This document shows, piece after piece, positions 3,449 to 35,334 of a stretch of 35,334 nt of DNA (position 1 is its first letter; the number at the start of each line of letters is the position of its first letter). Source of the DNA: a virus (taxonomy: Duplodnaviria > Heunggongvirae > Uroviricota > Caudoviricetes); the IMG/VR virus record IMGVR_UViG_2713896776_000008. One strand, 5' to 3'. A model generated the notes under the pieces. That model saw only the letters and a list, made by a program, of their open reading frames with translations. It did no database searches and had not been told where the DNA came from. Made by a program: the position numbers and the translations under genes.

Positions 3449-3718
3449 TTAATGTAACGACTCTGACCAGGTAATACGGCAGCCATGCAACTCAAAGACG
3501 CCCTGACGGAAGCGCCCTGAGCCGTCATGGCCAACATGGGTATAACTCGCTTTGCCCTGCTCCAGCAGGCGGGCACAGTGCCCGTTGCGGGCGATACGGA
3601 TAACCGGCTTACTGCCAGCAATCATGACGCTCTGCACGGTAGTGTTCATGGCGTTGAGCGCCATAATGGCGGACTGCACCTTGTTCATCTGCTGGTTGAT
3701 ATCGGCGATGGATTTCAT
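3449..3718 (-). CDS. hypothetical 89-aa protein immediately downstream of B (Kil-position gene)
   Basis: ATG at 3718 with AGGAG upstream; begins 3 nt after B stop; no recognised domain. Confidence 0.5.
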   Translation of the reverse strand: MKSIADINQQMNKVQSAIMALNAMNTTVQSVMIAGSKPVIRIARNGHCARLLEQGKASYTHVGHDGSGRFRQGVFELHGCRITWSESLH

Positions 3719-3720
3719 GA

Positions 3721-4887
3721 TTAAACTCCTTTGACGACGTCGGCGTTGACCTGCGGAACCCCGATTTCAGCAGCCAGATTCATGGCGGCTATCACCAGGT
3801 TACTGACGGCCAGCGGATACAGCAGGCTGACCATGCTTTTACGGTTGCTGCCCAGATTGCTCAGACGGGCGCGGATGGCTTCCACTGCGCTGGCGTCCAT
3901 GATGTCAGACAGCTGCTTACCGGCGCGTTGCAGTTTGAACGTCAGAAACTCTTCGAGGCTGTTGTCCAGCGGCAGCAGTTCAACCACCTCGCAGCGCTGG
4001 ACGACCTCACGGACTTCCATGTTGCGTTCGGACAGTTTGTCCGCCAGCTCAGGCTGGCCAATCAGCACGATGGACAGCAGTTTTTTGAAGCCGGATTCCA
4101 GCTCAAAGAAGCGTTTGAGGTGCTTCAGCGTCGGAATGGGCAGACTGTGGGCCTCCTCAATCACCAGAACGTGGCTGAAACCCGCCTGACTGCTGTCCTT
4201 CAGGACGCGGTGCAACTGGCGGAAACGGGCGTCCTGGCTGCGTTTGATACTCTCCAGCGGCGCGATGGTGCTGATGATGGCCTCGGCGATAGCTGCCGCC
4301 TTCAGGGTTTTGCCCTTCACGTCGTTGTCTTCCATGGCGATGATGTATGGCTCGATAACAATCACCGGCGCGTTCTCGCGGTTGACGCGTTCAATCAGGT
4401 CGCGGCGCAGCGTGGATTTACCCGCACCGGACTCGCCGATAACCGCCAGAAAGCCACCGTGGCGGGCGGTCTGGAACAGCGCCTCACGCACGTAGCGGAT
4501 ATCCGGCGTGGTGAACACATCGTCCGCGCCCTGCATGGCTTCATCGGCGAACGGGTCACGGAAAAGACCAAACGCTTTTTTGGTTGCTGGAAATAACACC
4601 TGCTTTTTGAGTAACATGTTCTCTTCCTCACTGAGGTTGGTTTTATCGGTAGTACCCGCTGTACGGGGTGTGACAGCGCCCTGTGCAGCATCAAAACTTT
4701 TCGCTGTATCAATCCCCTTACTTTCCAGATACAACGCCAGACGCTGGCGTACCTCTTCGGGGCTGGTGCGGGGCCACTCGTTATGGTTCACAATCTGGGC
4801 CAGCGTGGCCTCGGAAACGGCGACGGCTCTTGCCACCGCCGCCTGCGGGATGCGGGCCTCTTTCAGTTGTTGCTTCAGTACCAGCAT
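3721..4887 (-). CDS. DNA transposition protein B-like AAA+ ATPase (target DNA activator)
   Basis: Walker A AVIGESGAGKST, N-terminal HTH-like segment, Walker B-like hVLVIEEAH; GGAGG RBS; directly downstream of transposase as in Mu A-B. Confidence 0.85.
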   Translation of the reverse strand: MLVLKQQLKEARIPQAAVARAVAVSEATLAQIVNHNEWPRTSPEEVRQRLALYLESKGIDTAKSFDAAQGAVTPRTAGTTDKTNLSEEENMLLKKQVLFPATKKAFGLFRDPFADEAMQGADDVFTTPDIRYVREALFQTARHGGFLAVIGESGAGKSTLRRDLIERVNRENAPVIVIEPYIIAMEDNDVKGKTLKAAAIAEAIISTIAPLESIKRSQDARFRQLHRVLKDSSQAGFSHVLVIEEAHSLPIPTLKHLKRFFELESGFKKLLSIVLIGQPELADKLSERNMEVREVVQRCEVVELLPLDNSLEEFLTFKLQRAGKQLSDIMDASAVEAIRARLSNLGSNRKSMVSLLYPLAVSNLVIAAMNLAAEIGVPQVNADVVKGV

Positions 4888-8697: not shown

Positions 8698-9636
8698 ATG
8701 CGTAAGATGTTTTTGGTCTTAGCTCTGTCATTGCTGGTCGGTTGTGATAGTGGATCAGATGGTGTATCGGATTCTCCTTCTACTCCGTCCGTAGAATTCA
8801 ATGTAAAAACGGACGATTTGACTGTAAACAAGCTGTTGCCTGCTATCAAAAATCTACTGCCAGGGTTAAATCGGTACGCAGATCAGTTCGAAAATATTCA
8901 CGTTGAGCAAAATCATTGGCTCACTATCGTGTTTCATGTTCCCGAAAATGCAAACATACCCGCAGATTATCTCTCTCAGGGGAATAATTGCTTCATCGAG
9001 ATCAATAAAGAAGGTACAGCTATAAAAGTGCCTAAAAGAGCCTGTAAATCCGTTGCCCTAGATAGAGTTGTGCAGGATTTAGATAGCGACTATTGGTTCT
9101 ATTTCAATGCCGACGAATTAACCTATGTGCCGTATGATTTTGCAAAGTTAAACGACAAACAACGTGTAGATATTGGTGTCGCATATCTAAAAAAAATGTG
9201 GGATATCGTGCAGATGGTTAAGCAAAAAACAGACTGGCAACCAGATGATTTTCCTAACTACGCCAGATTGTTCAGGCAACTGGAGAGTGAGGGTAAGCAG
9301 TTTGTAATGGAGGGGGATATGTTCCCAGCTTATGGCTCTTGCAGGATGGCGGGGGCTAACGCTCAGCAATGGTGGTCTACACAAATTAGCTCACTTAAAG
9401 ATTTATCTTCAAATGACCCTCAACGAGCGGGTTCCGCTTTAAAACAAATTAAACGTCAATATGACTCATATCATGAAAGCGCTGTGAGTTGTGCAAAAGA
9501 AATCAGGCAAGCTCCACCAGTAGAGAAAAAAATGGAGGTGTTACCCCCTACGTCAGACAATAAACCTCCAAGAGCGGGCTGTCTGATGATATTTACACCT
9601 GATGACAAGACTAGCTGGAGCTGCCCGATAAACTGA
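8698..9636 (+). CDS. lipoprotein (312 aa), lipobox LLVGC with Asp at +2, AT-rich cargo gene
   Basis: MRKMFLVLALSLLVGC|DSG signal peptide and lipobox; AAGGA RBS; local GC visibly lower than flanking phage genes; several Cys pairs in mature part. Confidence 0.7.
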   Translation: MRKMFLVLALSLLVGCDSGSDGVSDSPSTPSVEFNVKTDDLTVNKLLPAIKNLLPGLNRYADQFENIHVEQNHWLTIVFHVPENANIPADYLSQGNNCFIEINKEGTAIKVPKRACKSVALDRVVQDLDSDYWFYFNADELTYVPYDFAKLNDKQRVDIGVAYLKKMWDIVQMVKQKTDWQPDDFPNYARLFRQLESEGKQFVMEGDMFPAYGSCRMAGANAQQWWSTQISSLKDLSSNDPQRAGSALKQIKRQYDSYHESAVSCAKEIRQAPPVEKKMEVLPPTSDNKPPRAGCLMIFTPDDKTSWSCPIN

Positions 9637-9638
9637 CA

Positions 9639-9896
9639 TTAGCAAGGCTTTCTGCTTTGGGGATTGGCGCTGATGGTCAGTCTTATCTCTCCAATGAGTA
9701 TTCCTTTCAGCTTATTTTCAGGGAGCATTCGTGGCGTTTTCTCCACCTGCTCAAGCGCGGCCTGCATCTCTCTTATTGCCTCTGCCAGATTGTCGGCATT
9801 GACGCTAAGTGTGTAGATTTTTGCTGCAGTTTCATGCTCATCGCAGGTTATTCCCATTAAGTATGAGTGTTTGGGTTTATTAGTTGCTGAACTCAT
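9639..9896 (-). CDS. hypothetical 85-aa protein co-transcribed downstream of dam-like gene
   Basis: ATG at 9896 with AAGGAG upstream, 12 nt after methyltransferase stop; stop lies 2 bp from lipoprotein stop (convergent). Confidence 0.5.
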   Translation of the reverse strand: MSSATNKPKHSYLMGITCDEHETAAKIYTLSVNADNLAEAIREMQAALEQVEKTPRMLPENKLKGILIGEIRLTISANPQSRKPC

Positions 9897-10808: not shown

Positions 10809-10861
10809 GTTCTTTCAAAGCCATCATGCGGTTCACGTCCGCATCCTCACTATTAACGCTG

Positions 10862-10899
10862 TTTAAAATCCCTTTCCCCGACCATTTGTGATGCTGTCT
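10862..10899 (+). promoter_or_regulatory. candidate late promoter element (weaker third copy of TTTAAWATC-N20-ATRCTGYCY motif) upstream of lysis operon
   Basis: TTTAAAATCCCTTTCCCCG ... ATGCTGTCT with the same 20-nt spacing as copies at 24459 and 30287. Confidence 0.35.
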
Positions 10900-10921: not shown

Positions 10922-11272
10922 ATGAAAAACCTGAAAAAACTTATTCCCCCTGTTAAAAAGCCACGTCTCAGCGGCTGGCTGCTGACCGCAGTGCTGTTGC
11001 TCGGTACCATCGGTCTTGTATCGCCCCAGCAGCTTCCGGTGGTTGTCTACAAGCTGTCACTCATCACGCTAGCGGCAGTATTGGGCTACTGGCTTGACCG
11101 TTCGCTTTTCCCCAAAGCCAGGCCAGGTCAGTACCTGAAGCATGACGACAGGCTGATGGCCGACGGGCGTTACCCGGTACAGACAGGCCTTCACCTGGTC
11201 TTTTCCGCTGCGCTAATCCGCCGTGCGCTGATTGTTGCCGCAGTCTGTCTGGCCGTAGCGACGGGGCTTTAA
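10922..11272 (+). CDS. putative holin / small lysis membrane protein (about 3 TM)
   Basis: AAGGAG RBS; hydrophobic segments WLLTAVLLLGTIGLV, LSLITLAAVLGYWL, ALIVAAVCLAVATGL; first gene of lysis cassette. Confidence 0.5.
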   Translation: MKNLKKLIPPVKKPRLSGWLLTAVLLLGTIGLVSPQQLPVVVYKLSLITLAAVLGYWLDRSLFPKARPGQYLKHDDRLMADGRYPVQTGLHLVFSAALIRRALIVAAVCLAVATGL

Positions 11273-21667: not shown

Positions 21668-21918
21668 TGAAAGAATACCGCTATTCCGGCCCGGCCAGCG
21701 GCGTCACGCTGTCGGACGGAACCGAAATCCTGCTCTGGCCGGGGAAGAATGTTTCCCTGCCGGAGGAGCATGACTATGTGAAGGTACTGGTGGCGCTGAA
21801 GCATCTGACACCGGTATCTGAAGAGACTAAACCCGCCAGCACACCGGTTGTGCAGTCACCAAAGCGCAGGAACGCCGGCGACAACGATGTGAAAACGGAG
21901 GACTCCCATGGCAGCTAA
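21664..21918 (+). CDS. small hypothetical protein (84 aa) preceding sheath
   Basis: GTG/ATG start 21664/21667; overlaps sheath start. Confidence 0.4.
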   Translation: MMKEYRYSGPASGVTLSDGTEILLWPGKNVSLPEEHDYVKVLVALKHLTPVSEETKPASTPVVQSPKRRNAGDNDVKTEDSHGS

Positions 21919-23335
21919 CTATCTGCATGGCGTCGAAACCATTGAGGTGGAAAACGGTGCCCGCCCGGTAAAAACGGTGAAGTCTGCCGTCATTGGCCTG
22001 ATTGGTACCGCCCCGATGGGGGACGTCAATACGCTGGTGCAGTGCCTGTCTGAGAAAGATGCAGCGGCGTTTGGCAGCCAGCTCACCGGTTTTACCATTC
22101 CGCAGGCGCTGGATGCGATCTACGACCATGGGGCAGGCACCGTTCTGGTCATTAACGTGCTTGATCCGGCTGTGCATAAAACCGCTGTGGCCGATGAAGA
22201 TGTAACGTTCGACAAGGCGACGGGCAAGGCACAGCTGGCTAATCCGGTGGTCGCGCAGCTGGTACTGAAACCGGACAGCGATGGCCAGCCTTATGTGGAA
22301 GGTCAGGACTACTCGCTTGATGCACAGACCGGAGTGATTACCAACCTTGGTAAGAGCATTGCCGCAGATGCAACGGTGAAGGCCAGCTATAACTATGCTG
22401 ATCCAACTAAAGTCACCCCGGCTGATATCATCGGTGCCGTTAACGCTGCGGGCAACCGTACCGGCATGAAGCTGCTTAACGACAGCTTCAACCTGTTTGG
22501 CTACTTCGCAAAAATACTGATTGCCCCGGTCTTCTGCACCCAGAACAGCGTCTCGGTTGAGCTTATCGCCATGGCTGAGAAGCTGGGCGCGGTGACCTAC
22601 ATCGACGCGCCGATTGGTACCACTTTTGCGCAGGCTCTGGCGGGGCGTGGCCCGGAAGGCACCATTAACTTCAACACCAGCTCCGACCGCGTCCGTCTGT
22701 GCTACCCGCACGTCAAGGTGTACGACGCGGCCACCAACAGCGAACGGCTGGAGCCGCTGAGCCAGCGTGCTGCAGGTCTGCGTGCCAAAGTCGACCTGGA
22801 CAAGGGCTACTGGTGGTCGTCCTCCAACCAGGAAATTCTGGGTATCACCGGCGTGGAGCGCCAGCTGTCGGCAATGATTGACGACCCGCAGAGCGAGGTG
22901 AACCTGCTCAACGAACAGGGCATCACCACGGTCTTCAGCAGCTACGGCAGCGGCCTGCGTCTGTGGGGCAACCGTATGGCGGCATGGCCAACGGTCACCC
23001 ATATGCGCAACTTTGAGAACGTTCGCCGTACCGGTGATGTGATCAACGAGTCCCTGCGTTACTTCAGCCAGCAGTACATCGACATGCCGATTACCCAGGC
23101 GCTGATTGATGCGCTGACGGAGTCGGTCAACGCCTACGGTCGCAAGCTGATTGGCGACGGTGCGCTGCTGGGCTTCAGCTGCTGGTTTGATCCGGCCCGC
23201 AACGAAGAGACGGAGCTTGCCGCCGGTCACCTGTTGCTGAGCTACAAATACACGCCACCACCACCGCTGGAGCGACTGACGTTTGAGACCGAGATCACCT
23301 CGGAATATCTGTTAACCCTGAAGGGGAATAGCTGA
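21908..23335 (+). CDS. contractile tail sheath protein
   Basis: 475 aa; precedes tube; family resemblance to Mu L / P2 FI sheath. Confidence 0.8.
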   Translation: MAANYLHGVETIEVENGARPVKTVKSAVIGLIGTAPMGDVNTLVQCLSEKDAAAFGSQLTGFTIPQALDAIYDHGAGTVLVINVLDPAVHKTAVADEDVTFDKATGKAQLANPVVAQLVLKPDSDGQPYVEGQDYSLDAQTGVITNLGKSIAADATVKASYNYADPTKVTPADIIGAVNAAGNRTGMKLLNDSFNLFGYFAKILIAPVFCTQNSVSVELIAMAEKLGAVTYIDAPIGTTFAQALAGRGPEGTINFNTSSDRVRLCYPHVKVYDAATNSERLEPLSQRAAGLRAKVDLDKGYWWSSSNQEILGITGVERQLSAMIDDPQSEVNLLNEQGITTVFSSYGSGLRLWGNRMAAWPTVTHMRNFENVRRTGDVINESLRYFSQQYIDMPITQALIDALTESVNAYGRKLIGDGALLGFSCWFDPARNEETELAAGHLLLSYKYTPPPPLERLTFETEITSEYLLTLKGNS

Positions 23336-23856
23336 TGGCAAAGATTGAGATCAACCGCATCACGAATGCCAACATCTACCTGGATGGCGCTAACCTGCTG
23401 GGCCGGGCCGAGGAGGTCAAACTCCCGGACGTCTCCATGACCATGCAGGAGCATAAGGCGCTGGGGATGGTGGGCAAAGTGGAACTCCCGGCAGGCTTCG
23501 ACAAGCTGGAGGGTGAGATCAAGTGGAACAGCTTTTACCGCGACGCGATGCTGTCTGCTGCGAACCCGTATAAGTCGCTGGCGCTGCAGTGCCGTTCCAG
23601 CGTCCAGCGCTACAGTTCGCAGGGGCTGATTGACGAAATCCCGCTGGTCACATTCCTGACGATCATGTTCAAGAAGAACCCGCTGGGGACGTTCAAACAG
23701 CACGAGAACGCCGAGTTCTCTAGCAGCTTCACCTGCACGTACATCAAGCAGGTACTGGATGGTGAAGAGCTGCTGGAGCTGGACTATCTGGCCAACATCT
23801 TCCGAGTCGGCGGCGTTGACCAGTTGACTGATTACCGCATCAATATCGGAGGGTGA
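23335..23856 (+). CDS. tail tube protein
   Basis: 173 aa directly after sheath with overlapping stop/start (TGATG). Confidence 0.7.
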   Translation: MAKIEINRITNANIYLDGANLLGRAEEVKLPDVSMTMQEHKALGMVGKVELPAGFDKLEGEIKWNSFYRDAMLSAANPYKSLALQCRSSVQRYSSQGLIDEIPLVTFLTIMFKKNPLGTFKQHENAEFSSSFTCTYIKQVLDGEELLELDYLANIFRVGGVDQLTDYRINIGG

Positions 23857-23858
23857 TC

Positions 23859-24152
23859 ATGGTGGTACCCAAAGTTGAGCGCAAAACGATAGACGACCTG
23901 GTGGCGTCGCTGAGTTATCAGACCCACCACTTTCCGGGCACCACGCTGACAATTGCTGTCGCGCTGATGCCAGATGGCTTTATGGTCAGCAGTGGATTCA
24001 GAGCCACGGCGCATCCGGGGTTGTTCGATGAAGAGACCGGCAGGAAGGTGGCCATCGCTAAAGCGCAGCACAATGCGACTGAAGCGCTGTGGCAGTTTGA
24101 GGGGTACAGGCTGAAGTCCCGGCTGGCATCGGGGAACAACGATGACCGTTGA
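23859..24152 (+). CDS. hypothetical protein (possibly Gp49-like family), inserted between tube and chaperone
   Basis: ATG at 23859 after GGAGGG; 97 aa; no equivalent at this position in the canonical Mu or P2 gene order (from memory). Confidence 0.45.
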   Translation: MVVPKVERKTIDDLVASLSYQTHHFPGTTLTIAVALMPDGFMVSSGFRATAHPGLFDEETGRKVAIAKAQHNATEALWQFEGYRLKSRLASGNNDDR

Positions 24153-24423
24153 GATCGAAGATAAAGGCGGGAACTGTGGTTCGATTGGCATGGGGAATGG
24201 CACCTGGTTTACCATCCTCGATATTCCGGGGGTGGAAAACCTTTTTAATACCCGTAAAACCAATGACCCGATTGACTGCACCCGCTCCAAAGCACGGAAG
24301 CTCGCTGACCTGATTGAGGCATGGGAGCCACCTGACCACTGGTTCACCGGCATCGGCAAATCCGAAGGAAAGGCACTTCTTATCGCCTTCCTGCGTAACT
24401 GCAAAGGCTTTCGTACTCACTGA
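24142..24423 (+). CDS. hypothetical 93-aa protein
   Basis: ATG at 24142 overlapping upstream stop; followed by a strong intrinsic terminator. Confidence 0.45.
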   Translation: MTVEIEDKGGNCGSIGMGNGTWFTILDIPGVENLFNTRKTNDPIDCTRSKARKLADLIEAWEPPDHWFTGIGKSEGKALLIAFLRNCKGFRTH

Positions 24424-24430
24424 TATCACA

Positions 24431-24456
24431 GGGGCTTCGGCCCCTTTCTTCTTAAT
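24431..24456 (+). terminator. rho-independent terminator GGGGCTTCGGCCCC + TTTCTTCTT
   Basis: Perfect 5-bp GC stem with TTCG tetraloop followed by a T-rich tract, 8 nt after the stop at 24423. Confidence 0.65.
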
Positions 24457-24458
24457 CC

Positions 24459-24498
24459 CCTTTAATATCCGTTCCCCGCGTCACCGGACATACTGCCC
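24459..24498 (+). promoter_or_regulatory. candidate late promoter: CCTTTAATATC-N20-ATACTGCCC upstream of chaperone/tape-measure operon
   Basis: Bipartite motif identical in sequence and spacing to the copy at 30287-30326; a CATACT -10-like hexamer would give a short leader containing AGGAG. Confidence 0.5.
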
Positions 24499-24515
24499 TG
24501 AACTTACACAGGAGC

Positions 24516-24836
24516 ATGAACATGTCACAGGTACAACTCGAAGTATTTATTCCGGCCTATCCATTCACGACCGCTGTCGGAACGCGTATTGAGCGCATTG
24601 AACTCAAGCGTCTGACTGTTAAGGACCTGAAGCAGGTTCGAAAAACCTCTAAAGACCCGGCTGACTGGGACGAACCGCTGATTGCCCGCAGTACCGGCCT
24701 GCTCCCGGAGGACCTGGATAATATGGACCTGGCTGATTATCTGGAGCTGCAGAAACGATTTCAGCAAGTCACTGGGCTGGGCAAGAGCGACGAAAACGCT
24801 GATGCAGGCGCAGGGTCTCCTGGCGAGGTGGTTTAG
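24516..24836 (+). CDS. tail assembly chaperone (P2 gpE / Mu gp41-like)
   Basis: 106 aa immediately upstream of tape-measure gene; overlapping +1-frame ORF extends past its stop. Confidence 0.6.
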   Translation: MNMSQVQLEVFIPAYPFTTAVGTRIERIELKRLTVKDLKQVRKTSKDPADWDEPLIARSTGLLPEDLDNMDLADYLELQKRFQQVTGLGKSDENADAGAGSPGEVV

Positions 24837-24939
24837 ATTTCAGCCGGGGGAGATTGATGCCCTCGATACTGACGATCTGGAGATGTGGCTGGAGCAGGCT
24901 GAAGAGCAAATCAGAAGCGAGTTCGGCGATAATCAGTAA
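24682..24939 (+). CDS. frameshift extension of tail chaperone (E'-like; open +1/-2 frame 24682-24939)
   Basis: Second open frame overlaps the 3' part of the chaperone gene and runs 103 nt beyond its stop; no SD before its internal ATG. Confidence 0.45.
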   Translation: MPAVPACSRRTWIIWTWLIIWSCRNDFSKSLGWARATKTLMQAQGLLARWFRFQPGEIDALDTDDLEMWLEQAEEQIRSEFGDNQ

Positions 24940-24953
24940 CTCCTCATCACTTA

Positions 24954-24974
24954 ACAGCCGCTACTCGCGGCTGT
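24954..24974 (+). other. hairpin ACAGCCGC-tactc-GCGGCTGT between chaperone and tape-measure genes
   Basis: 8-bp perfect stem, 5-nt loop; no U-tract. Confidence 0.3.
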
Positions 24975-25031
24975 TCTGCATGGCTCTCAGACATTTTCCT
25001 TCCGTTTTTCCGCTTTCAGAGGATAACCACC

Positions 25032-27509
25032 GTGGCCAGTGAATTTTCAGTCGGCGTCATTATTGGCGGCATTGTCGGGAGCAGCTTCCGTTCTGCCGTC
25101 AGCGGTACCCGACGCGCCCTTGATTCCCTGGGCGATACATCGCGCCGCCTGCAGGAACGCCAGAACGCCTTAACCCGTGCAACTGAACGTTATGGGCAGT
25201 TAGGCTCTTCCCGAATGCAGCGCCTCAACAGCGAGCTGCTGCGGGTAAGCCGCACAATGGAGCAAATTGAGCGCCAGCAGCGCCGTCTGTCAGCAGTATC
25301 AGCCACCAGTGACGCGCTGAAAGCTAACCGCATGGCGTTGTATGGTCAGGGCGTTGAGGCGTATGCCATGGCACAGACCGTTTATCATACGGTCTCCCCG
25401 GCAGTTCAGCAGTCTATGTCTTTTAAAGACAAAATGATTGATATGTCGATCACCGCCAAATATGACGATAAAACGCGGGATGCTCTTGCCGAACAAATAA
25501 AAGGCTGGGCACTTAAATACAATCAGTATCAGGATGATATGCAGGACGCTGTGGGTTCACTCATCAGTGACAACATCGATAATGTATCTGATATTGGGTA
25601 TTTAATGCCGGACATTGCCCGCGCGGCAACCGCAACACGCACATCGGGACAGGACTGGGCCAAAGTAGCTGCGGTCTGGCAAAACTCACTGAAAGGTGCT
25701 GCCAAAGATTTTGGTGCCGTCCAGAATATTATGGCTTATGCCGGTGACCAGGGGTCATTTGAAATCCCGGATCAGGTCAAATGGATGCAGTCTCTGGCCC
25801 CCATGATGGCGGGAGTTGCCAGCGGGAAAGAGGCTGTAGCTGAAATCGGTGCCAGCCTCCAGATAGCGAAAATTGGTGCGGGTTCCACCGATGAAGCTGC
25901 CAATAACTTTAAAAACTTTCTCACCAAAATTTTTGCCCGCGATACTCAGAAACAATTTGCCGATTTGGGTGTTGACCTGCAGGGTTCAATCGAAAGTTAC
26001 AAGGCTGCTGGCATCTCTCCGATTGAAGGCATGATGAGCGTCATAGAGCGCTACCTCAATGCTAAAAGCCCTGAAGCTCTGGCCGGGTTCAAATCCGCCA
26101 TGAAAATAAAGAACGATACGGCGAGGGATGAGGCTCTTCAGGCGCTGGCAAAAAATTTCGGCCTGGGCGAGATGTTCGCTGATATGCAGGTCATGGCGTT
26201 TGTCCGTCCGATGCTGTCCAACATGGACAGGTACCGTGAAATACGTGCCGGTGCTCTCAAAGCAGCGGATAACGATCTTCTTGGAAACTCTTACGACCAG
26301 CGCCTGAAATCCCCTCTTGAAGCGACCAAAGCTCTGGTGGTCAACAGTCGCGATCTGGCTATTACGCTGGGCGATCAATTAGCTCCATCTTTTATTTCTC
26401 TGGCGCAGGAGCTTCTCCCTCTGATTCAGGGGGCAAAACAATGGGTCGCGGCTCATCCACAACTTGTCAGTGGTACTTTTAAAGTTATTACCGCGCTCAT
26501 TGCTTTTAAAATTGCGGTTATTGGTCTCAAGCTGGGGATAAACCTTCTTATTTCCCCATTTGTCAACGTCTGGAAAAGTATCGTACTGCTGCAATCCAGT
26601 TGGCTTCGGCTGACGCTTGCACTCGGTGAAGGCGGTAAACTCCGCTGGCTGGTGACCGGCTTCAGCGCCGTCGCCAGAGGTGCCAGAACTTTGGGAGGAG
26701 TGCTGTCAGGTGGGCTGGTTCGCGGCATTATGATCGCCGGGCGTGCCGTTCTCTGGATTGGCCGGGCACTGCTAATGAATCCCATTGGTCTTGCCATCAC
26801 CGCCGTCGCGGCGGCAGCTTACCTTATTTACCGCAACTGGGGCGCAGTCAGTAGCTGGTTTAAACAGCGTTGGGCTGACATTAAAGAGGCGTTTAACGGC
26901 GGTGTCGTGGGGATTGGTAAGCTGCTGATTAACTGGTCGCCGGTTGGTCTGCTCTATAAAGCCTTTGCGGCTGCGCTGAAATATCTCGGCGTTGATCTGC
27001 CGGCGAAGTTCACCGACTTCGGTGGTCATCTTATCGACGGCCTGATTAACGGCATCAAAAACAAATGGGAGTCGCTCAAAACCACCGTCACAGACATGGG
27101 CGACAGCGTTGGCGGCTGGTTTAAAGAAAAGCTGGGTATCCATTCGCCAAGCCGGGTATTCATGGGCTTTGGTGACAACATCGCGCAGGGTGCCGCTATC
27201 GGCCTGCAGCGTACCACACCACTGGCAGCGCTCGCCGGACAACGCCTGGCAACAGAGATGACTCCCGATGTTCCCCGTATCCCGTCGCCGGAAATCATGG
27301 CAGCGGGATATTCAGGTCGTGGCGCAGTTGCAACTGGCGGCGGAACATCTGGCGGTATCCAGGTCAGCTTTAATCCTCAGTTTTTCCTCAATGGCAAAGA
27401 AACCGCAGCGCCTGCCGGACTGACCGGCGCACTGAATATGAGCCTGCATGAACTGGAGAAAATGCTGGAGCGTCTGCTGGCTCAGAAACAACGTCGGGGG
27501 TACGAATAA
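25032..27509 (+). CDS. tail tape measure protein
   Basis: 825 aa, long predicted helical N-terminal region and hydrophobic glycine-rich central segments; GTG start after AGAGGA. Confidence 0.8.
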   Translation: MASEFSVGVIIGGIVGSSFRSAVSGTRRALDSLGDTSRRLQERQNALTRATERYGQLGSSRMQRLNSELLRVSRTMEQIERQQRRLSAVSATSDALKANRMALYGQGVEAYAMAQTVYHTVSPAVQQSMSFKDKMIDMSITAKYDDKTRDALAEQIKGWALKYNQYQDDMQDAVGSLISDNIDNVSDIGYLMPDIARAATATRTSGQDWAKVAAVWQNSLKGAAKDFGAVQNIMAYAGDQGSFEIPDQVKWMQSLAPMMAGVASGKEAVAEIGASLQIAKIGAGSTDEAANNFKNFLTKIFARDTQKQFADLGVDLQGSIESYKAAGISPIEGMMSVIERYLNAKSPEALAGFKSAMKIKNDTARDEALQALAKNFGLGEMFADMQVMAFVRPMLSNMDRYREIRAGALKAADNDLLGNSYDQRLKSPLEATKALVVNSRDLAITLGDQLAPSFISLAQELLPLIQGAKQWVAAHPQLVSGTFKVITALIAFKIAVIGLKLGINLLISPFVNVWKSIVLLQSSWLRLTLALGEGGKLRWLVTGFSAVARGARTLGGVLSGGLVRGIMIAGRAVLWIGRALLMNPIGLAITAVAAAAYLIYRNWGAVSSWFKQRWADIKEAFNGGVVGIGKLLINWSPVGLLYKAFAAALKYLGVDLPAKFTDFGGHLIDGLINGIKNKWESLKTTVTDMGDSVGGWFKEKLGIHSPSRVFMGFGDNIAQGAAIGLQRTTPLAALAGQRLATEMTPDVPRIPSPEIMAAGYSGRGAVATGGGTSGGIQVSFNPQFFLNGKETAAPAGLTGALNMSLHELEKMLERLLAQKQRRGYE

Positions 27510-29762: not shown

Positions 29763-30274
29763 TGGCAGGCGTCACCCGTCAGGTCGGTACGGTCAGCGCC
29801 GTCGATGCCGACAAGGTTCAGGCCCGCGTTCGTCTGCCTGAGTGCGATAACCTGCGCACTAACTGGCTTAACGTACTGCAGCGCAACACCCAGGATAACA
29901 AGGATTACTGGCTACCTGACGTGGGGGAGCAGGTTGAGGTGCTGCTCGATGCCAACGGCGAGGATGGTGTCATTCTGGGCGCGGTGTATTCAGACGTCGA
30001 TAAGCCACCGTTCAGCGACAAAAACGTCCGGGGCACGAAATACGCGGATGGCGCAGAGTTCAGCTATAACCGCGCGACCCATACGCTGACGGTCAAAGGT
30101 GGTATCGAGCGCGTAGTAATCGAGGTTGCGGTAGGTATCAGCCTGAAGGGGAAAACCATTGATTTGACCGCTGACACCACCACGGTGAACGGCAACCTTG
30201 AAATCAACGGCAATGCCCACTCCACAGGCAGCATGCTCTCTGACGGCCAGAACTCCAATCATCACTCCCACTGA
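29762..30274 (+). CDS. baseplate spike (gpV-like)
   Basis: 170 aa, AAGGAG RBS; order hub-spike-W-J-I. Confidence 0.7.
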   Translation: MAGVTRQVGTVSAVDADKVQARVRLPECDNLRTNWLNVLQRNTQDNKDYWLPDVGEQVEVLLDANGEDGVILGAVYSDVDKPPFSDKNVRGTKYADGAEFSYNRATHTLTVKGGIERVVIEVAVGISLKGKTIDLTADTTTVNGNLEINGNAHSTGSMLSDGQNSNHHSH

Positions 30275-30286
30275 CCTTCTTAAACG

Positions 30287-30326
30287 CCTTTAATATCGGC
30301 GTTCCCGCACAGGGGCAATACTGCCC
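30287..30326 (+). promoter_or_regulatory. candidate late promoter: CCTTTAATATC-N20-ATACTGCCC ending 2 nt before the ATG of the gp25/W-like gene
   Basis: Same bipartite motif and spacing as 24459-24498; downstream gene has no SD. Confidence 0.5.
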
Positions 30327-30328
30327 CC

Positions 30329-30676
30329 ATGAAAACAACTTCCGTATTCTGGCAACCGGCCCTGCAGGCCCCTGGCGAAATCGTCCGGGGGCTGGATGAT
30401 ATCTGGCAGGCCATTCAAATCATCCTGCGAACTCCTCGCGGCAGCGACCCGCATCGCCCGGAGTTCGGCAGCAACCTGCATCTTTATATCGACTGGCCCA
30501 TCGACCGGGCTATCCCACATGTGGTGCGCGAGTCCGTTGATGCCATCCGGCGCTGGGAGCCTCGCTGCCAGCTTATGTCGGTTAAACCCGCCGTCGACGG
30601 TGAACATCTTACGCTCCGGGTGAGCTGGAAAGGCTCTGACGGACAGCCCCGGACTCAGGAGCTTTTATGGCGCTGA
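30329..30676 (+). CDS. baseplate wedge protein (gp25 / GPW-like)
   Basis: 115 aa with conserved family layout; ATG at 30329 with no SD. Confidence 0.7.
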   Translation: MKTTSVFWQPALQAPGEIVRGLDDIWQAIQIILRTPRGSDPHRPEFGSNLHLYIDWPIDRAIPHVVRESVDAIRRWEPRCQLMSVKPAVDGEHLTLRVSWKGSDGQPRTQELLWR

Positions 30677-33327: not shown

Positions 33328-33930
33328 ATGGAACAGGCTATTTTGGGAAAAGACGGTTACGCTTTAAATGATGGGGAAATCATCGTACATAACTATGATG
33401 GCGAAACGCGGGAATATATTTCTACATCAACTGAATATCTCGCTGTCGGCGTCGGTATCCCGGCATGTTCCTGTCTGGATGCACCAGGTACACATAAAGC
33501 TGGTTATGCAATCTGTCGCTCTGTAGATTTAAATTCATGGGAATATGTGCCAGACCATCGCGGTGAAGTTGTCTATAGTACCGAAACGGGAGATACCAAA
33601 GAAATCACAGTTCCGGGTGATTACCCTGAAAATACAACCACTATCGCCCCATTAACGCCATACGATAAATGGGATGGTGAGAAATGGGTGACGGATACCG
33701 AGGCACAGCATAGCGCCGCACTAGACGCGGCAGAAGCACAGCGCCAGTCACTGATTAATGCAGCAATGGCTTCCATTAGTCTGATTCAGCTGAAATTACA
33801 GGCCGGACGGAAGTTGACGCAGGCAGAAACAACCCGACTTAACGCCGTGCTGGATTACATTGACGCGGTGACGGCAACAGATACCAGCACCGCGCCGGAT
33901 GTCATCTGGCCTGAACTGCCGGAGGAGTAG
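33328..33930 (+). CDS. tail fibre assembly chaperone (U-like)
   Basis: C-terminal LDYIDAVTATDTSTAPDVIWPELP motif typical of Tfa proteins; AT-rich. Confidence 0.75.
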   Translation: MEQAILGKDGYALNDGEIIVHNYDGETREYISTSTEYLAVGVGIPACSCLDAPGTHKAGYAICRSVDLNSWEYVPDHRGEVVYSTETGDTKEITVPGDYPENTTTIAPLTPYDKWDGEKWVTDTEAQHSAALDAAEAQRQSLINAAMASISLIQLKLQAGRKLTQAETTRLNAVLDYIDAVTATDTSTAPDVIWPELPEE

Positions 33931-34342
33931 GCCATTCAATATCTGGTGCACTGGAAGTATCGACCAGCTCCAGTGCGTCCAGATAATCCAGCCACAAATT
34001 ATATTGCGCCAGTTCCTCACCTTTCAGACGACCAATAGCCGCTTTACCAGCCCATTGTCTACTGTTCATATAATCGTTGGCCTGATTAATCAATTGCTGC
34101 TTTTTAGTTTCGGCTGATGCAATTTGTTCTTCACGTGTTGGCGGTGGAACATCTGCCCATGCTGGCATTCCATCGTCTCCGGTAATTCTGTACTTACCGT
34201 CAGGCGGCGTATCATGGAAATATTCCCTGAAAATAGCTTCGTCTATATCCACGCCTTTACCTTCGGGCCATTGGCCTTTTGCAGCGTAAACAGACTGGAG
34301 GGCATAAGGGTACGCCAGATTATCAACATACAAATATTTCAT
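33902..34342 (-). CDS. alternative tail fibre assembly chaperone (U'-like)
   Basis: C-terminal LDYLDALELVDTSSAPDIEWPTPP motif; convergent with U, 3' ends overlap 29 bp. Confidence 0.7.
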   Translation of the reverse strand: MKYLYVDNLAYPYALQSVYAAKGQWPEGKGVDIDEAIFREYFHDTPPDGKYRITGDDGMPAWADVPPPTREEQIASAETKKQQLINQANDYMNSRQWAGKAAIGRLKGEELAQYNLWLDYLDALELVDTSSAPDIEWPTPPAVQAR

Positions 34343-34344
34343 AA

Positions 34345-34704
34345 TTAACGCCCTTTCGCGTAGAAGGCTCCACCTTCAAAGCCATAGTTACAATGAGCAA
34401 CGAAACCTGTTTTCGTCCAGTTAGTTGCGCCCCACATATTCCCACCACCAAAACCGCCGTCATATACAATCACTACGTCTGGCTCCTGCGTAAAAGGAAT
34501 GGTGAAAGTCACATTTGTAGATACCGCCGCGGCGTTATTCGGGAAATTAATTCTTCCCCACTGCTCAATTGAACCATCAGGCAATTTTTGCCAGCCAGAT
34601 CCTGATGAATAAGCTGACATATCAGGTATCTGATTTTCCCCTGTTCCCACATTCCGTTTTGCCGCTTCTCCCAAACCAAGGTTTTTGGAAAAGCAGTTAC
34701 ACAT
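34345..34704 (-). CDS. alternative tail-fibre C-terminal segment (S'v), promoterless cassette joined to the constant part after inversion
   Basis: ORF contains the same gix-encoded KNLGLGE heptapeptide near its 5' end; Gly-rich distal domain differs from the current Sv. Confidence 0.65.
   Translation of the reverse strand: MCNCFSKNLGLGEAAKRNVGTGENQIPDMSAYSSGSGWQKLPDGSIEQWGRINFPNNAAAVSTNVTFTIPFTQEPDVVIVYDGGFGGGNMWGATNWTKTGFVAHCNYGFEGGAFYAKGR
34666..34691. repeat. gix/hix-like recombination site (right), inverted copy
   Basis: TTCTCCCAAACCAAGGTTTTTGGAAA; reverse complement matches the left site at 24/26 positions. Confidence 0.65.
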
Positions 34705-34752
34705 AGAGAAATCTGCAAAAATCCTCCCACTATGATGTGAAGGAGGAAATTG

Positions 34753-35334
34753 ATGGCCGTTATTGGTTATATCCGCGTATCAACAATCGACCAGAACAGC
34801 GATTTGCAGCGTAATGCACTCACAAGCGCAAACTGTGACCGCATTTTTGAAGACCGTATGAGTGGAAAAGTTGCCAGTCGCCCTGGTCTTAAAGGCGCTT
34901 TAAAGTGCATTAATAGCGGAGACACCCTGGTAGTGTGGAAACTGGACAGGCTGGGACGTAGCGTTAAGAACCTGATTGCACTCATATCAGAGTTACATGA
35001 ACGTGGTGCCCACTTCCGCTCTTTAACAGACAGTATTGATACCAGCACTGCCATGGGGCGCTTCTTTTTCCATGTAATGTCGGCATTGGCGGAGATGGAG
35101 CGCGAGCTAATTGTCGAACGGACACTGGCCGGGCTGGCAGCAGCCAGAGCACAGGGACGCGTAGGTGGAAGGCCCAACGCATTAAAAACCCATGAGCGAG
35201 AGCAGATTGGGCGGCTATTGACGAAGGGGCACACCCGCCAGCAGCTGGCAATTATCTACGGTGTAGGGTTATCGACGCTTTACCGATACTTTCCGGTGGA
35301 TGGTCATAGGAAGGATAACGCAGCAGGAATGTAA
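34753..35334 (+). CDS. gin: Gin/Hin/Pin-family serine DNA invertase
   Basis: N-terminal resolvase catalytic region GYIRVSTIDQNSDLQRNAL with active-site Ser, DRLGRS motif, C-terminal HTH; AGGAGG RBS; adjacent to invertible segment. Confidence 0.9.
   Translation: MAVIGYIRVSTIDQNSDLQRNALTSANCDRIFEDRMSGKVASRPGLKGALKCINSGDTLVVWKLDRLGRSVKNLIALISELHERGAHFRSLTDSIDTSTAMGRFFFHVMSALAEMERELIVERTLAGLAAARAQGRVGGRPNALKTHEREQIGRLLTKGHTRQQLAIIYGVGLSTLYRYFPVDGHRKDNAAGM

Follow-up and report, generated by a model that had tools for sequence, protein, structure and literature searches.

The stretch of DNA analysed here, i.e., the 35,334-nucleotide (nt) IMG/VR record IMGVR_UViG_2713896776_000008 (hereafter, the window), is an almost complete prophage of an enterobacterial BcepMu-like phage, transposable in the manner of Mu and provided with a P2-type contractile tail. 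The locus under study is the boundary between its tail tube and tail chaperone genes, where two small genes are located. The tail sheath gene (475 aa, 21908–23335; PF04984/PF17482; phrog_23, E = 1e-139) is the first of a stretch, on the + strand, that continues with the P2 FII-type tube gene (173 aa, 23335–23856; PF04985, E = 1.1e-54) and then with gene 1 (97 aa, 23859–24152), belonging to the Acb4 family (PF13876), and gene 2 (93 aa, 24142–24423), a divergent representative of DUF7739 (PF24881)/phrog_1239. On the same strand, these are followed by a terminator-like hairpin, AGGGGCTTCGGCCCCT (24430–24445), with TTCTTCTT after it (the entire element spanning 24430–24453), by a late-promoter-like element (24452–24495) made up of TTAATCCCCTTTAATAT (24452–24468) and CATACT (24489–24494), and by the tail assembly chaperone gene E (24516–24836; PF10109, E = 8e-21), overlapped by the out-of-frame open reading frame (ORF) E′ (24682–24939; phrog_8286, E = 2e-31 in the second frame). 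The initial annotation of this DNA had described the two small genes as an insertion into an order that in P2 runs from tube directly to chaperone. Both ORFs are indeed present and supported by protein families, and the tube–chaperone gap without any gene measures 56 nt in P2 (FII–E) and 121 nt in BcepMu.

The ATG of gene 1 lies 2 nt past the stop codon of the tube gene, with a GGAGG 6 nt upstream of it (an alternative GTG at 23853 would lead to a 99-aa product), and the start of gene 2 overlaps the end of gene 1 by 11 nt; both genes are provided with a Shine-Dalgarno-like sequence, and in both the start is tightly coupled to the gene before it. The ratio of nonsynonymous to synonymous substitution rates (dN/dS) is 0.15–0.17 for gene 1 and 0.04–0.11 for gene 2, as compared with 0.02–0.03 for the tube gene, and both genes are under purifying selection. 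The long antisense ORFs lying over them gave zero family matches, no Rfam match was found in the region 23300–25100, and the scan of the + strand from 22098 to 25556 disclosed no sigma-70 consensus promoter, so that none is located ahead of either gene. No match for either small protein was retrieved from PADLOC or NCBIfam.

The nearest isolated relatives of the prophage are Klebsiella phage KP12 (96.6% DNA identity to the window from sheath to chaperone), Escherichia phage Phi06_2974 B, and PhiKM, the last being classified in Bcepmuvirus. All three possess gene 2 and lack gene 1, and their alignment with the window shows a clean 283-nt indel matching gene 1. A 7-nt direct repeat (ATCGGRG) flanking this indel was considered as a recombination footprint and discarded, since it is absent from the Citrobacter rodentium and Limnobaculum versions and is probably a coincidence. 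A tube-protein scan limited to one genome per species gave 74 loci, 69 of which harbor both tube and chaperone. In 32 of these 69 the slot is vacant (gap of 24–250 nt), including the locus of Erwinia tracheiphila (L014), whose tube is 98% identical to that of the window. The DUF7739 gene is present alone in 11 loci and as a remnant in five (Photorhabdus); Acb4 and DUF7739 genes are found together in five, one with a decayed gene 2 and one (L012) with a transposase gene, and the remaining 16 contain other cargo. BcepMu carries no cargo in the slot.

The occupied slots of the 69 relatives harbor at least six different cargoes. Besides genes 1 and 2, these comprise a 66-aa phrog_9518 gene, Lonsdalea orphans of 76–92 aa, and a 2Fe-2S ferredoxin-like gene of 109–110 aa (PF00111; phrog_844, "ferredoxin"), the latter observed in Pectobacterium spp. 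(L042, L044, L046, and L049–L051, at about 3540–3872). In the Neisseriaceae bacterium TC5R-5 (L060:3596–4843), genes for two proteins lie after the tube terminator, one of 296 aa containing a CdiA-CT RNase A toxin domain (PF18431, E = 1e-31) and the other a CdiI immunity protein (PF18593, E = 1e-17). In Chromobacterium sphagni (L058:773–3150), the slot contains a 2.2-kb reverse-strand block encoding a PAAR-like protein of 302 aa, a lysozyme-like one of 221 aa, and two small proteins that look secreted, all assigned by eye from the translations; this block resembles an effector/immunity cluster of type VI secretion systems. In Pantoea stewartii ATCC 8199 (L012:4132–5091, − strand), gene 2 is directly followed on its 3′ side by a transposase-like ORF of 319 aa, which probably belongs to an insertion sequence, and no terminator hairpin was detected at this junction.

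The distribution of the two genes suggests that they entered the slot at different times. The identity of gene 2 drops along with that of the tube (83% in Serratia, 66% in Photorhabdus), which suggests a long residence in the slot, while gene 1 occurs there only with tubes at least 98% identical to that of the window, pointing to a recent addition. Decayed copies of gene 2, consisting of 56-aa remnants or of copies shortened by premature stops, were observed in Photorhabdus spp. (L022–L025 and L028), Mixta (L009:3525–3707), and Apirhabdus (L016:3808–3978); the decay in several lineages indicates that gene 2 is dispensable and under loss in some hosts. Among complete Escherichia coli genomes, gene 2-like DNA adjoins the tube gene in 637 of 5,426, and both genes are present in only two of the 5,426. 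The common E. coli variant of gene 2 occurs in more than 2,000 index blocks of an assembly collection, with the order tube, DUF7739, chaperone in all the eight places found among the matches listed; the C. rodentium-type gene 1 occurs in about 250 index blocks, and the order tube, gene 1, gene 2, chaperone was found in three out of three places among the matches listed. Genes 1 and 2 are passengers independent of each other: gene 2 is found alone in thousands of assemblies, Acb4 homologues are common without DUF7739, and the profile search disclosed no fusion protein joining the two families. A protein exactly identical to that of gene 1 is present in a single NCBI contig (LDYM01000148.1), and tubes 100% identical to that of the window are present in other Enterobacterales prophages.

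These data support the view that the junction is an accessory position of variable content and that neither gene is a conserved structural protein. The comparison of synteny proposed in the initial annotation thus revealed the variability that had been anticipated, both in KP12, PhiKM, and BcepMu and in the 69 relatives, and the conservation of both genes in all relatives as virion proteins, named there as the finding that would speak against an accessory slot, was not observed, given that 32 of the 69 possess neither. The same annotation had called the insertion a moron or accessory slot. Genes that adjoin each other in relatives are here separated by additional DNA, and the accessory slot stands; an autonomous moron, with its own promoter and terminator, does not, since no sigma-70-like site lies ahead of the genes and the hairpin is also found in cargo-free relatives.

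The hairpin AGGGGCTTCGGCCCCT has a 6-bp stem and a UUCG loop (−11.2 kcal/mol). A terminator scan of the 5-kb region detected it, but gave six sites in all versus 4.7 expected, a number not above chance, so that it is the conservation in relatives that makes the case for a real hairpin. Between tube and chaperone, a perfect GC-rich hairpin with a T-run after it is present at 58 of 73 loci, and in 49 of the 52 relatives whose tube identity is at least 78%, cargo-free loci included (as examples, L043, L047, L048, L052, L071, and BcepMu); in the cargo-free loci it is located about 30 nt past the tube stop. Pectobacterium and Samsonia share the identical AGGGGCTTCGGCCCCT, BcepMu has GGCCCGCTTCGGCGGGCC followed by T6, and about 20 different hairpin sequences exist at this one junction, which means that the structure is conserved and the sequence is not; in one pair the stem is changed on both sides (GGCCCGC..GCGGGCC versus GGCCCAC..GTGGGCC). 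A GC-rich hairpin plus T-run conserved as a structure is what defines an intrinsic terminator, and in this respect the terminator of the initial annotation is real; the adjectives "strong" and "textbook" appear somewhat generous, the stem being short and the T-run interrupted. P2 was dropped as a terminator model, the hairpin in its FII–E gap having no T-run.

The idea that the terminator closes the insertion does not hold, since the same hairpin and T-run follow the tube gene in cargo-free relatives. As its distribution shows, the hairpin is ancestral; it is predicted to be the end of the sheath–tube transcription unit, and its presence in cargo-free relatives implies that it was already in place when the cargo entered upstream of it. 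In most of the occupied loci, and in every gene 1/gene 2 locus with a detected hairpin, the cargo does lie upstream of it; the exceptions are L058 and L060, where it lies 3′ of the hairpin, and the ferredoxin-like loci, five of six of which have a hairpin on both sides.

Concerning gene 1, no function was known for PF13876 ("N4 gp49 / Sf6 gene 66") until the work of Chang et al., who described Acb4 of Bacillus phage SPO1 as a 96-aa protein that forms a tetramer (PDB 9E4W), sequesters 3′3′-cGAMP and other dinucleotides of the cyclic oligonucleotide-based antiphage signaling system (CBASS), and is enough on its own to defeat CBASS in vivo (bioRxiv 10.1101/2024.12.30.630793). In the same study, eight out of eight purified diverse homologues, including those of phages of Gram-negative bacteria, bound 3′3′-cGAMP; the Gram-negative-phage homologues also bind 3′3′-cAA, and none bind cGG; diverse homologues keep cGAMP binding with altered specificity (bioRxiv 10.1101/2024.12.30.630793). 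Gene 1 matches PF13876 with 46.7 bits (cutoff 27; E = 4.6e-12), its residues 8–89 covering positions 3–82 of the 82 of the profile, and it also matches phrog_322. A profile built on 11 of its relatives matches the solved Acb4 structure (9E4W_A) with E = 2e-7, profile positions 12–94 aligning with chain residues 12–86. With the single sequence, 9E4W was not matched in the PDB, and a WD40-repeat match retrieved in that search was rejected as spurious, its individual stretches having E values of at least 4.8. Moreover, Table S3 of Chang et al., which lists 1,331 Acb4 homologues (bioRxiv 10.1101/2024.12.30.630793), holds 12 sequences of the gene 1 subclade, one of them differing from gene 1 at three positions. 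On the basis of the profile score above cutoff, the match to 9E4W, and this listing, the membership of gene 1 in the Acb4 family can be considered secure by homology and already catalogued. Gene 1 is a further member of a known anti-CBASS family, and no major concept is changed by it.

Acb4 genes are located in different places in other phages, e.g., after the lysis genes in Sf6 (gene 66) and among the head genes in Acinetobacter phages. In the protein panel, one of the 80 viral Acb4 loci has a tube/chaperone context and 15 adjoin head genes, so that the idea of this junction as the usual home of Acb4 was rejected. An Acb4 gene was also found between an unrelated Mu-type tube (PF10618) and a TAC_7 chaperone in Ralstonia phages YO102_5 (L083:2593–3615) and YO382_2 (L084) and in an IMG/VR contig (L125), that is, in the same slot of a different myovirus lineage, there without the terminator.

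As for gene 2, it matches phrog_1239 with E = 7e-46 and PF24881 with 19.1 bits (E = 0.0019), below the cutoff of 27. Its orthologues P0007 and P0009 (85–87% identity) carry PF24881, and a profile including gene 2 retrieves many proteins annotated as DUF7739 over their full length (E from 1e-39 to 1e-24), clearly pointing to gene 2 as a divergent DUF7739 member. The family is a narrow one: at 50% identity it forms 83 clusters in a set of 1.84 billion representative proteins; its members are mostly stand-alone proteins of about 93–100 aa, a few longer matches resembling merged ORFs, and their hosts belong mainly to Enterobacterales, Plesiomonas, and Vibrio. In Sf6 (gene 22), EPP-1, and MII_001, the DUF7739 gene belongs to the early-left accessory region, where it has the recombination/abc2/ea genes on one side and xis/int on the other; in both contexts, the tail slot and the early-left region, it would be expressed during the lytic cycle. 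A homologue with about 40% identity, gp123 of Yersinia phage fHe-Yen8-01 (L081:2501–2809), is annotated as "particle associated protein" and lies near a particle-associated ADP-ribosyltransferase toxin of about 2,100 aa. No mention of DUF7739, of the phrog numbers, or of fHe-Yen8-01 was found in the literature searched, and the motifs of gene 2 are absent from the candidate tables of Tal et al.

The AlphaFold2 model of gene 2 is confident, with a pLDDT score of 92.5. The structure search suggested in the initial annotation yielded nothing of use for it: no significant Foldseek match was found in the PDB (best E = 0.12, TM ≤ 0.49), only uncharacterized proteins were retrieved from BFVD, and the single-sequence search of the PDB gave no hit. 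That gene 2 might be a DMP12-like DNA mimic, or a small inhibitor of a host DNA-binding protein or defense effector, is quite unlikely: apart from the lack of a significant structural match, its sequence identity to DMP12 is 9%, and the protein is not acidic (isoelectric point (pI) 6.7; family median 8.7), whereas DNA mimics are strongly acidic, so that the mimic role was rejected on charge. As a guess held with low confidence, based on the two lytic-cycle expression contexts and on the anti-defense neighbors, gene 2 might encode a lytic-cycle protein for host interaction or counter-defense. It is rather doubtful, although conceivable, that DUF7739 as a whole is an unrecognized family of phage counter-defense proteins, i.e., a new signal sponge or an inhibitor of defense effectors; the size of about 93 aa, the basic character of the family with its conserved aromatic and basic residues, and the location beside Acb4 here and beside abc2/ea genes in P22-like phages are consistent with it. 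In that case, enterobacterial BcepMu-like phages would have, at their tube/chaperone junction, an island of counter-defense and competition genes, and its passengers would take advantage of the conserved terminator–promoter boundary to travel on the abundant message of sheath and tube. In any case, being well folded and narrowly distributed, gene 2 is a reasonable candidate for anti-defense screening.

The location of the two genes might also suggest that one protein or both are components of the tail or virion, or lineage-specific assembly factors. The genes belong to the tail module, where they probably share a transcript with sheath and tube, the homologue in fHe-Yen8-01 is labeled as particle-associated, and an Acb4 homologue is found between the unrelated tube and the chaperone in YO102_5 and L125. 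On the other hand, BcepMu and 32 of the 69 relatives do without either gene, including the E. tracheiphila prophage with its nearly identical tube, and the isolated phages KP12 and PhiKM dispense with gene 1; both families occupy non-tail positions in podoviruses (Sf6 genes 22 and 66, N4, epsilon15), and the tube/chaperone context is a single case among 80 other viral Acb4 loci. A role in the virion is thus very improbable.

Downstream of the hairpin, the interval up to the chaperone (about 70–110 nt) is divergent apart from three elements, TAA..C.TTA(A), ATACT, and the Shine-Dalgarno sequence AGGAG, which are invariant and at fixed spacing in 13 diverse relatives from Enterobacterales. The motif TTAA-N5-TTTAAWAT occurs in the window exactly three times versus 0.08 expected, always on the + strand and in intergenic regions: ahead of the holin gene (10853–10895, 53 nt upstream of the ATG at 10922), of the chaperone gene (24452), and of the gpW gene (30280–30322, between the stop of the baseplate V gene at 30274 and the gpW ATG at 30329). 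An ATACT or ATGCT is located about 20 nt past each copy, at the same distance each time; at the chaperone it is part of CATACT, a −10-like hexamer without a sigma-70 −35 element. A shared motif, a −10-like hexamer without a −35, and an activator gene are the marks of Mor/C-type late promoters, and all of them are found here, the activator gene being the Mor-family gene at 350–769 on the − strand (PF08765, E = 1.3e-42), whose product is the candidate activator of the three sites. On the basis of the recurrence of the motif, of the Mor-family gene, and of the analogy to the C-dependent promoters Plys, PI, and PP of Mu, the three sites are probably activator-dependent late promoters and the late promoter set of this phage group. 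The proposal that a promoter-like motif restarts the tail operon after the terminator is thereby retained in spirit, the motif being conserved and recurrent, and abandoned as far as a sigma-70 promoter is concerned, given the lack of a consensus match. At the third site, in the region 30306–30328, the ATACTG is embedded in a hairpin, GGGGCAATACTGCCCC, at a distance of only 6 nt from the gpW ATG, and that start has no visible Shine-Dalgarno sequence; the gpW mRNA may be leaderless, or GGGGCAATACTGCCCC may be a regulatory structure.

Taken together, the data can be accommodated in a reading whose probability is estimated to be about 0.72: the late genes would be split into several activator-dependent transcription units, the slot would lie upstream of the ancestral terminator of one of them, gene 1 would encode an Acb4-type sponge, and gene 2 would be a lytic-cycle passenger. 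One unit would end at the hairpin right after the tube gene and the next would start about 45 nt further on, at the motif before the chaperone. The stretch from the tube stop to the terminator tolerates extra DNA and acts as a cargo slot; the position would be permissive because, at a boundary between transcription units, insertions leave the essential genes joined to their signals. After induction or infection, Mor-dependent late transcription would produce an abundant sheath–tube message ending at the hairpin, on which genes 1 and 2, translationally coupled, would ride, gene 2 being the older resident. The gene 1 protein, by homology a homotetramer with four interface pockets, would then sequester 3′3′-cGAMP and related cyclic dinucleotides that the CBASS of the host makes on sensing late phage products, keeping the effector off until lysis. 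Since a sponge needs one protein per ligand, the high-expression side of the terminator would supply the required abundance. Expression of the downstream tail genes would come from read-through, from the next late promoter, or from the two combined.

The initial annotation had proposed looking for a defense or exclusion phenotype. For gene 1, the family points elsewhere, that is, to counter-defense (anti-CBASS), acting for the phage in lytic growth. The related possibility that genes 1 and 2 are lysogenic-conversion morons, giving the host defense or superinfection exclusion, is highly unlikely: the + strand upstream has no sigma-70 promoter, the two genes have starts coupled to the late tube gene, the gene 1 family consists of phage counter-defense sponges, PADLOC does not recognize either protein, and the DUF7739 genes of P22-like phages belong to the early lytic PL operon.

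Some observations weigh against the late-transcribed sponge and its passenger. Of the ten ligand-contact residues of SPO1 Acb4 that were compared (K36, F48, E49, V56, Y57, F62, N63, I66, T70, and K81, with N63 contacting the ligand via its backbone), two are identical in gene 1 according to a hidden Markov model (HMM) alignment (F48 to F41 and F62 to F56), and K36, E49, Y57, T70, and K81 align to T29, M42, A51, V64, and Q79, respectively; the ligand of gene 1 could accordingly differ from cGAMP. Nevertheless, homologues with altered specificity still bind cGAMP, which means that the contact residues do not define the family. The AlphaFold2 model of gene 1, obtained from a seven-sequence alignment, is poor (pLDDT 49.9; predicted template modeling score (pTM) 0.30), so that the fold and the tetramer are putative for this protein, even though the order of its elements (helix 8–17, strands 19–24, 31–36, and 42–44, helix 58–91), i.e., a helix, three strands, and a long helix, is in this low-confidence model the same as that of the Acb4 core (N-terminal helices, three antiparallel strands, and C-terminal helices). 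The function of gene 1 as a cyclic-dinucleotide sponge against CBASS is thus a prediction as far as this subclade is concerned, and the transcription boundaries are likewise predicted from sequence. Moreover, the interruption of the T-run implies that read-through may be substantial, and the annotation of gp123 in fHe-Yen8-01 leaves room for a virion-associated role of gene 2.

Gene 1 gives the recently defined Acb4 family a concrete setting, the tail operon of a temperate transposable enterobacterial prophage, with relevance, through its predicted sponge function, to the escape of prophages from CBASS on induction and to the prediction of phage host range. More in general, the cargo of this phage group gathers at one transcription-unit boundary, almost always upstream of the conserved terminator, and additional accessory genes can therefore readily be looked for in this slot; the ferredoxin-like gene, the CdiA-CT/CdiI pair, and two orphan families are what this search has yielded so far.

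In the rest of the window, the left part contains the Mor activator, GemA, the transposase, and the repressor region, followed by lysis, head, and tail genes on the + strand. Downstream of the chaperone lies the tape measure protein gene (825 aa, 25032–27509, + strand), assigned through the PF10145 match of the identical gene in LDYM01000148.1. Between a repressor-like helix-turn-helix gene and a Dam-type methylase gene there are a 312-aa ORF with a lipoprotein-like signal (..LLVGC; 8698–9636, + strand) and an 85-aa ORF (9639–9896, − strand), both with no Pfam match, and the pair (8698–9896) is likely another accessory region. The right end is an invertible tail-fiber segment (33902–35334), where opposed tail-fiber assembly genes adjoin a serine recombinase gene, an arrangement that looks like the G-segment of Mu and similar Cin-type host-range switches.

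The comparison with SPO1 Acb4 concerns gene 1 itself. Both proteins are phage-encoded and similar in size (97 versus 96 aa), and the family profile of gene 1 aligns with the solved Acb4 from end to end. Their identity is, however, about 20–25%, only two pocket phenylalanines are retained, and the gene 1 subclade has a 4-residue insertion in the region of the C-terminal helix; moreover, SPO1 is a virulent phage, whereas gene 1 sits in the late tail operon of a temperate transposable one. As for the transcriptional signals, the late promoters Plys, PI, PP, and Pmom of Mu are activated by C, a member of the Mor/C family (PMC4461284). As in Mu, several putative late units here each lie behind a shared non-sigma-70 motif, and the early operon ends with the gene of a Mor-family activator; unlike in Mu, the motif (TTAA-N5-TTTAAWAT...ATACT) is specific to this enterobacterial group, one of the sites, all of them deduced here from the DNA itself, is directly 3′ of a terminator, and that site is inside the tail module.

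The slot also recalls other variable regions of temperate phages. The anti-CRISPR loci of the Mu-like phages of Pseudomonas (the JBD30/DMS3 group) are located inside the late morphogenesis genes, in the head module, and have their own promoter, an aca regulator, and early expression. As in those loci, a variable counter-defense slot lies within the structural genes of a transposable phage, with a cargo differing among close relatives; unlike them, the slot of the window has no promoter or regulator of its own and is placed where tube and chaperone genes meet, with a conserved terminator downstream of it. The classical morons of lambdoid phages, in the sense of Juhala and Hendrix, bring along a promoter and a terminator of their own and are often active in the prophage state, and the variable regions of P2 (old/tin, Z/fun) are found at positions other than tube/chaperone. 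With both of them the slot shares the presence of additional DNA where relatives have adjacent genes, a mosaic content, and passengers that are apparently horizontally acquired, with homologues in unrelated phages. It differs from the classical morons in that its terminator is ancestral and no promoter is seen, and from the hotspots of P2 in being located at the tube/chaperone boundary, where in P2 the FII–E gap is just those 56 nt.

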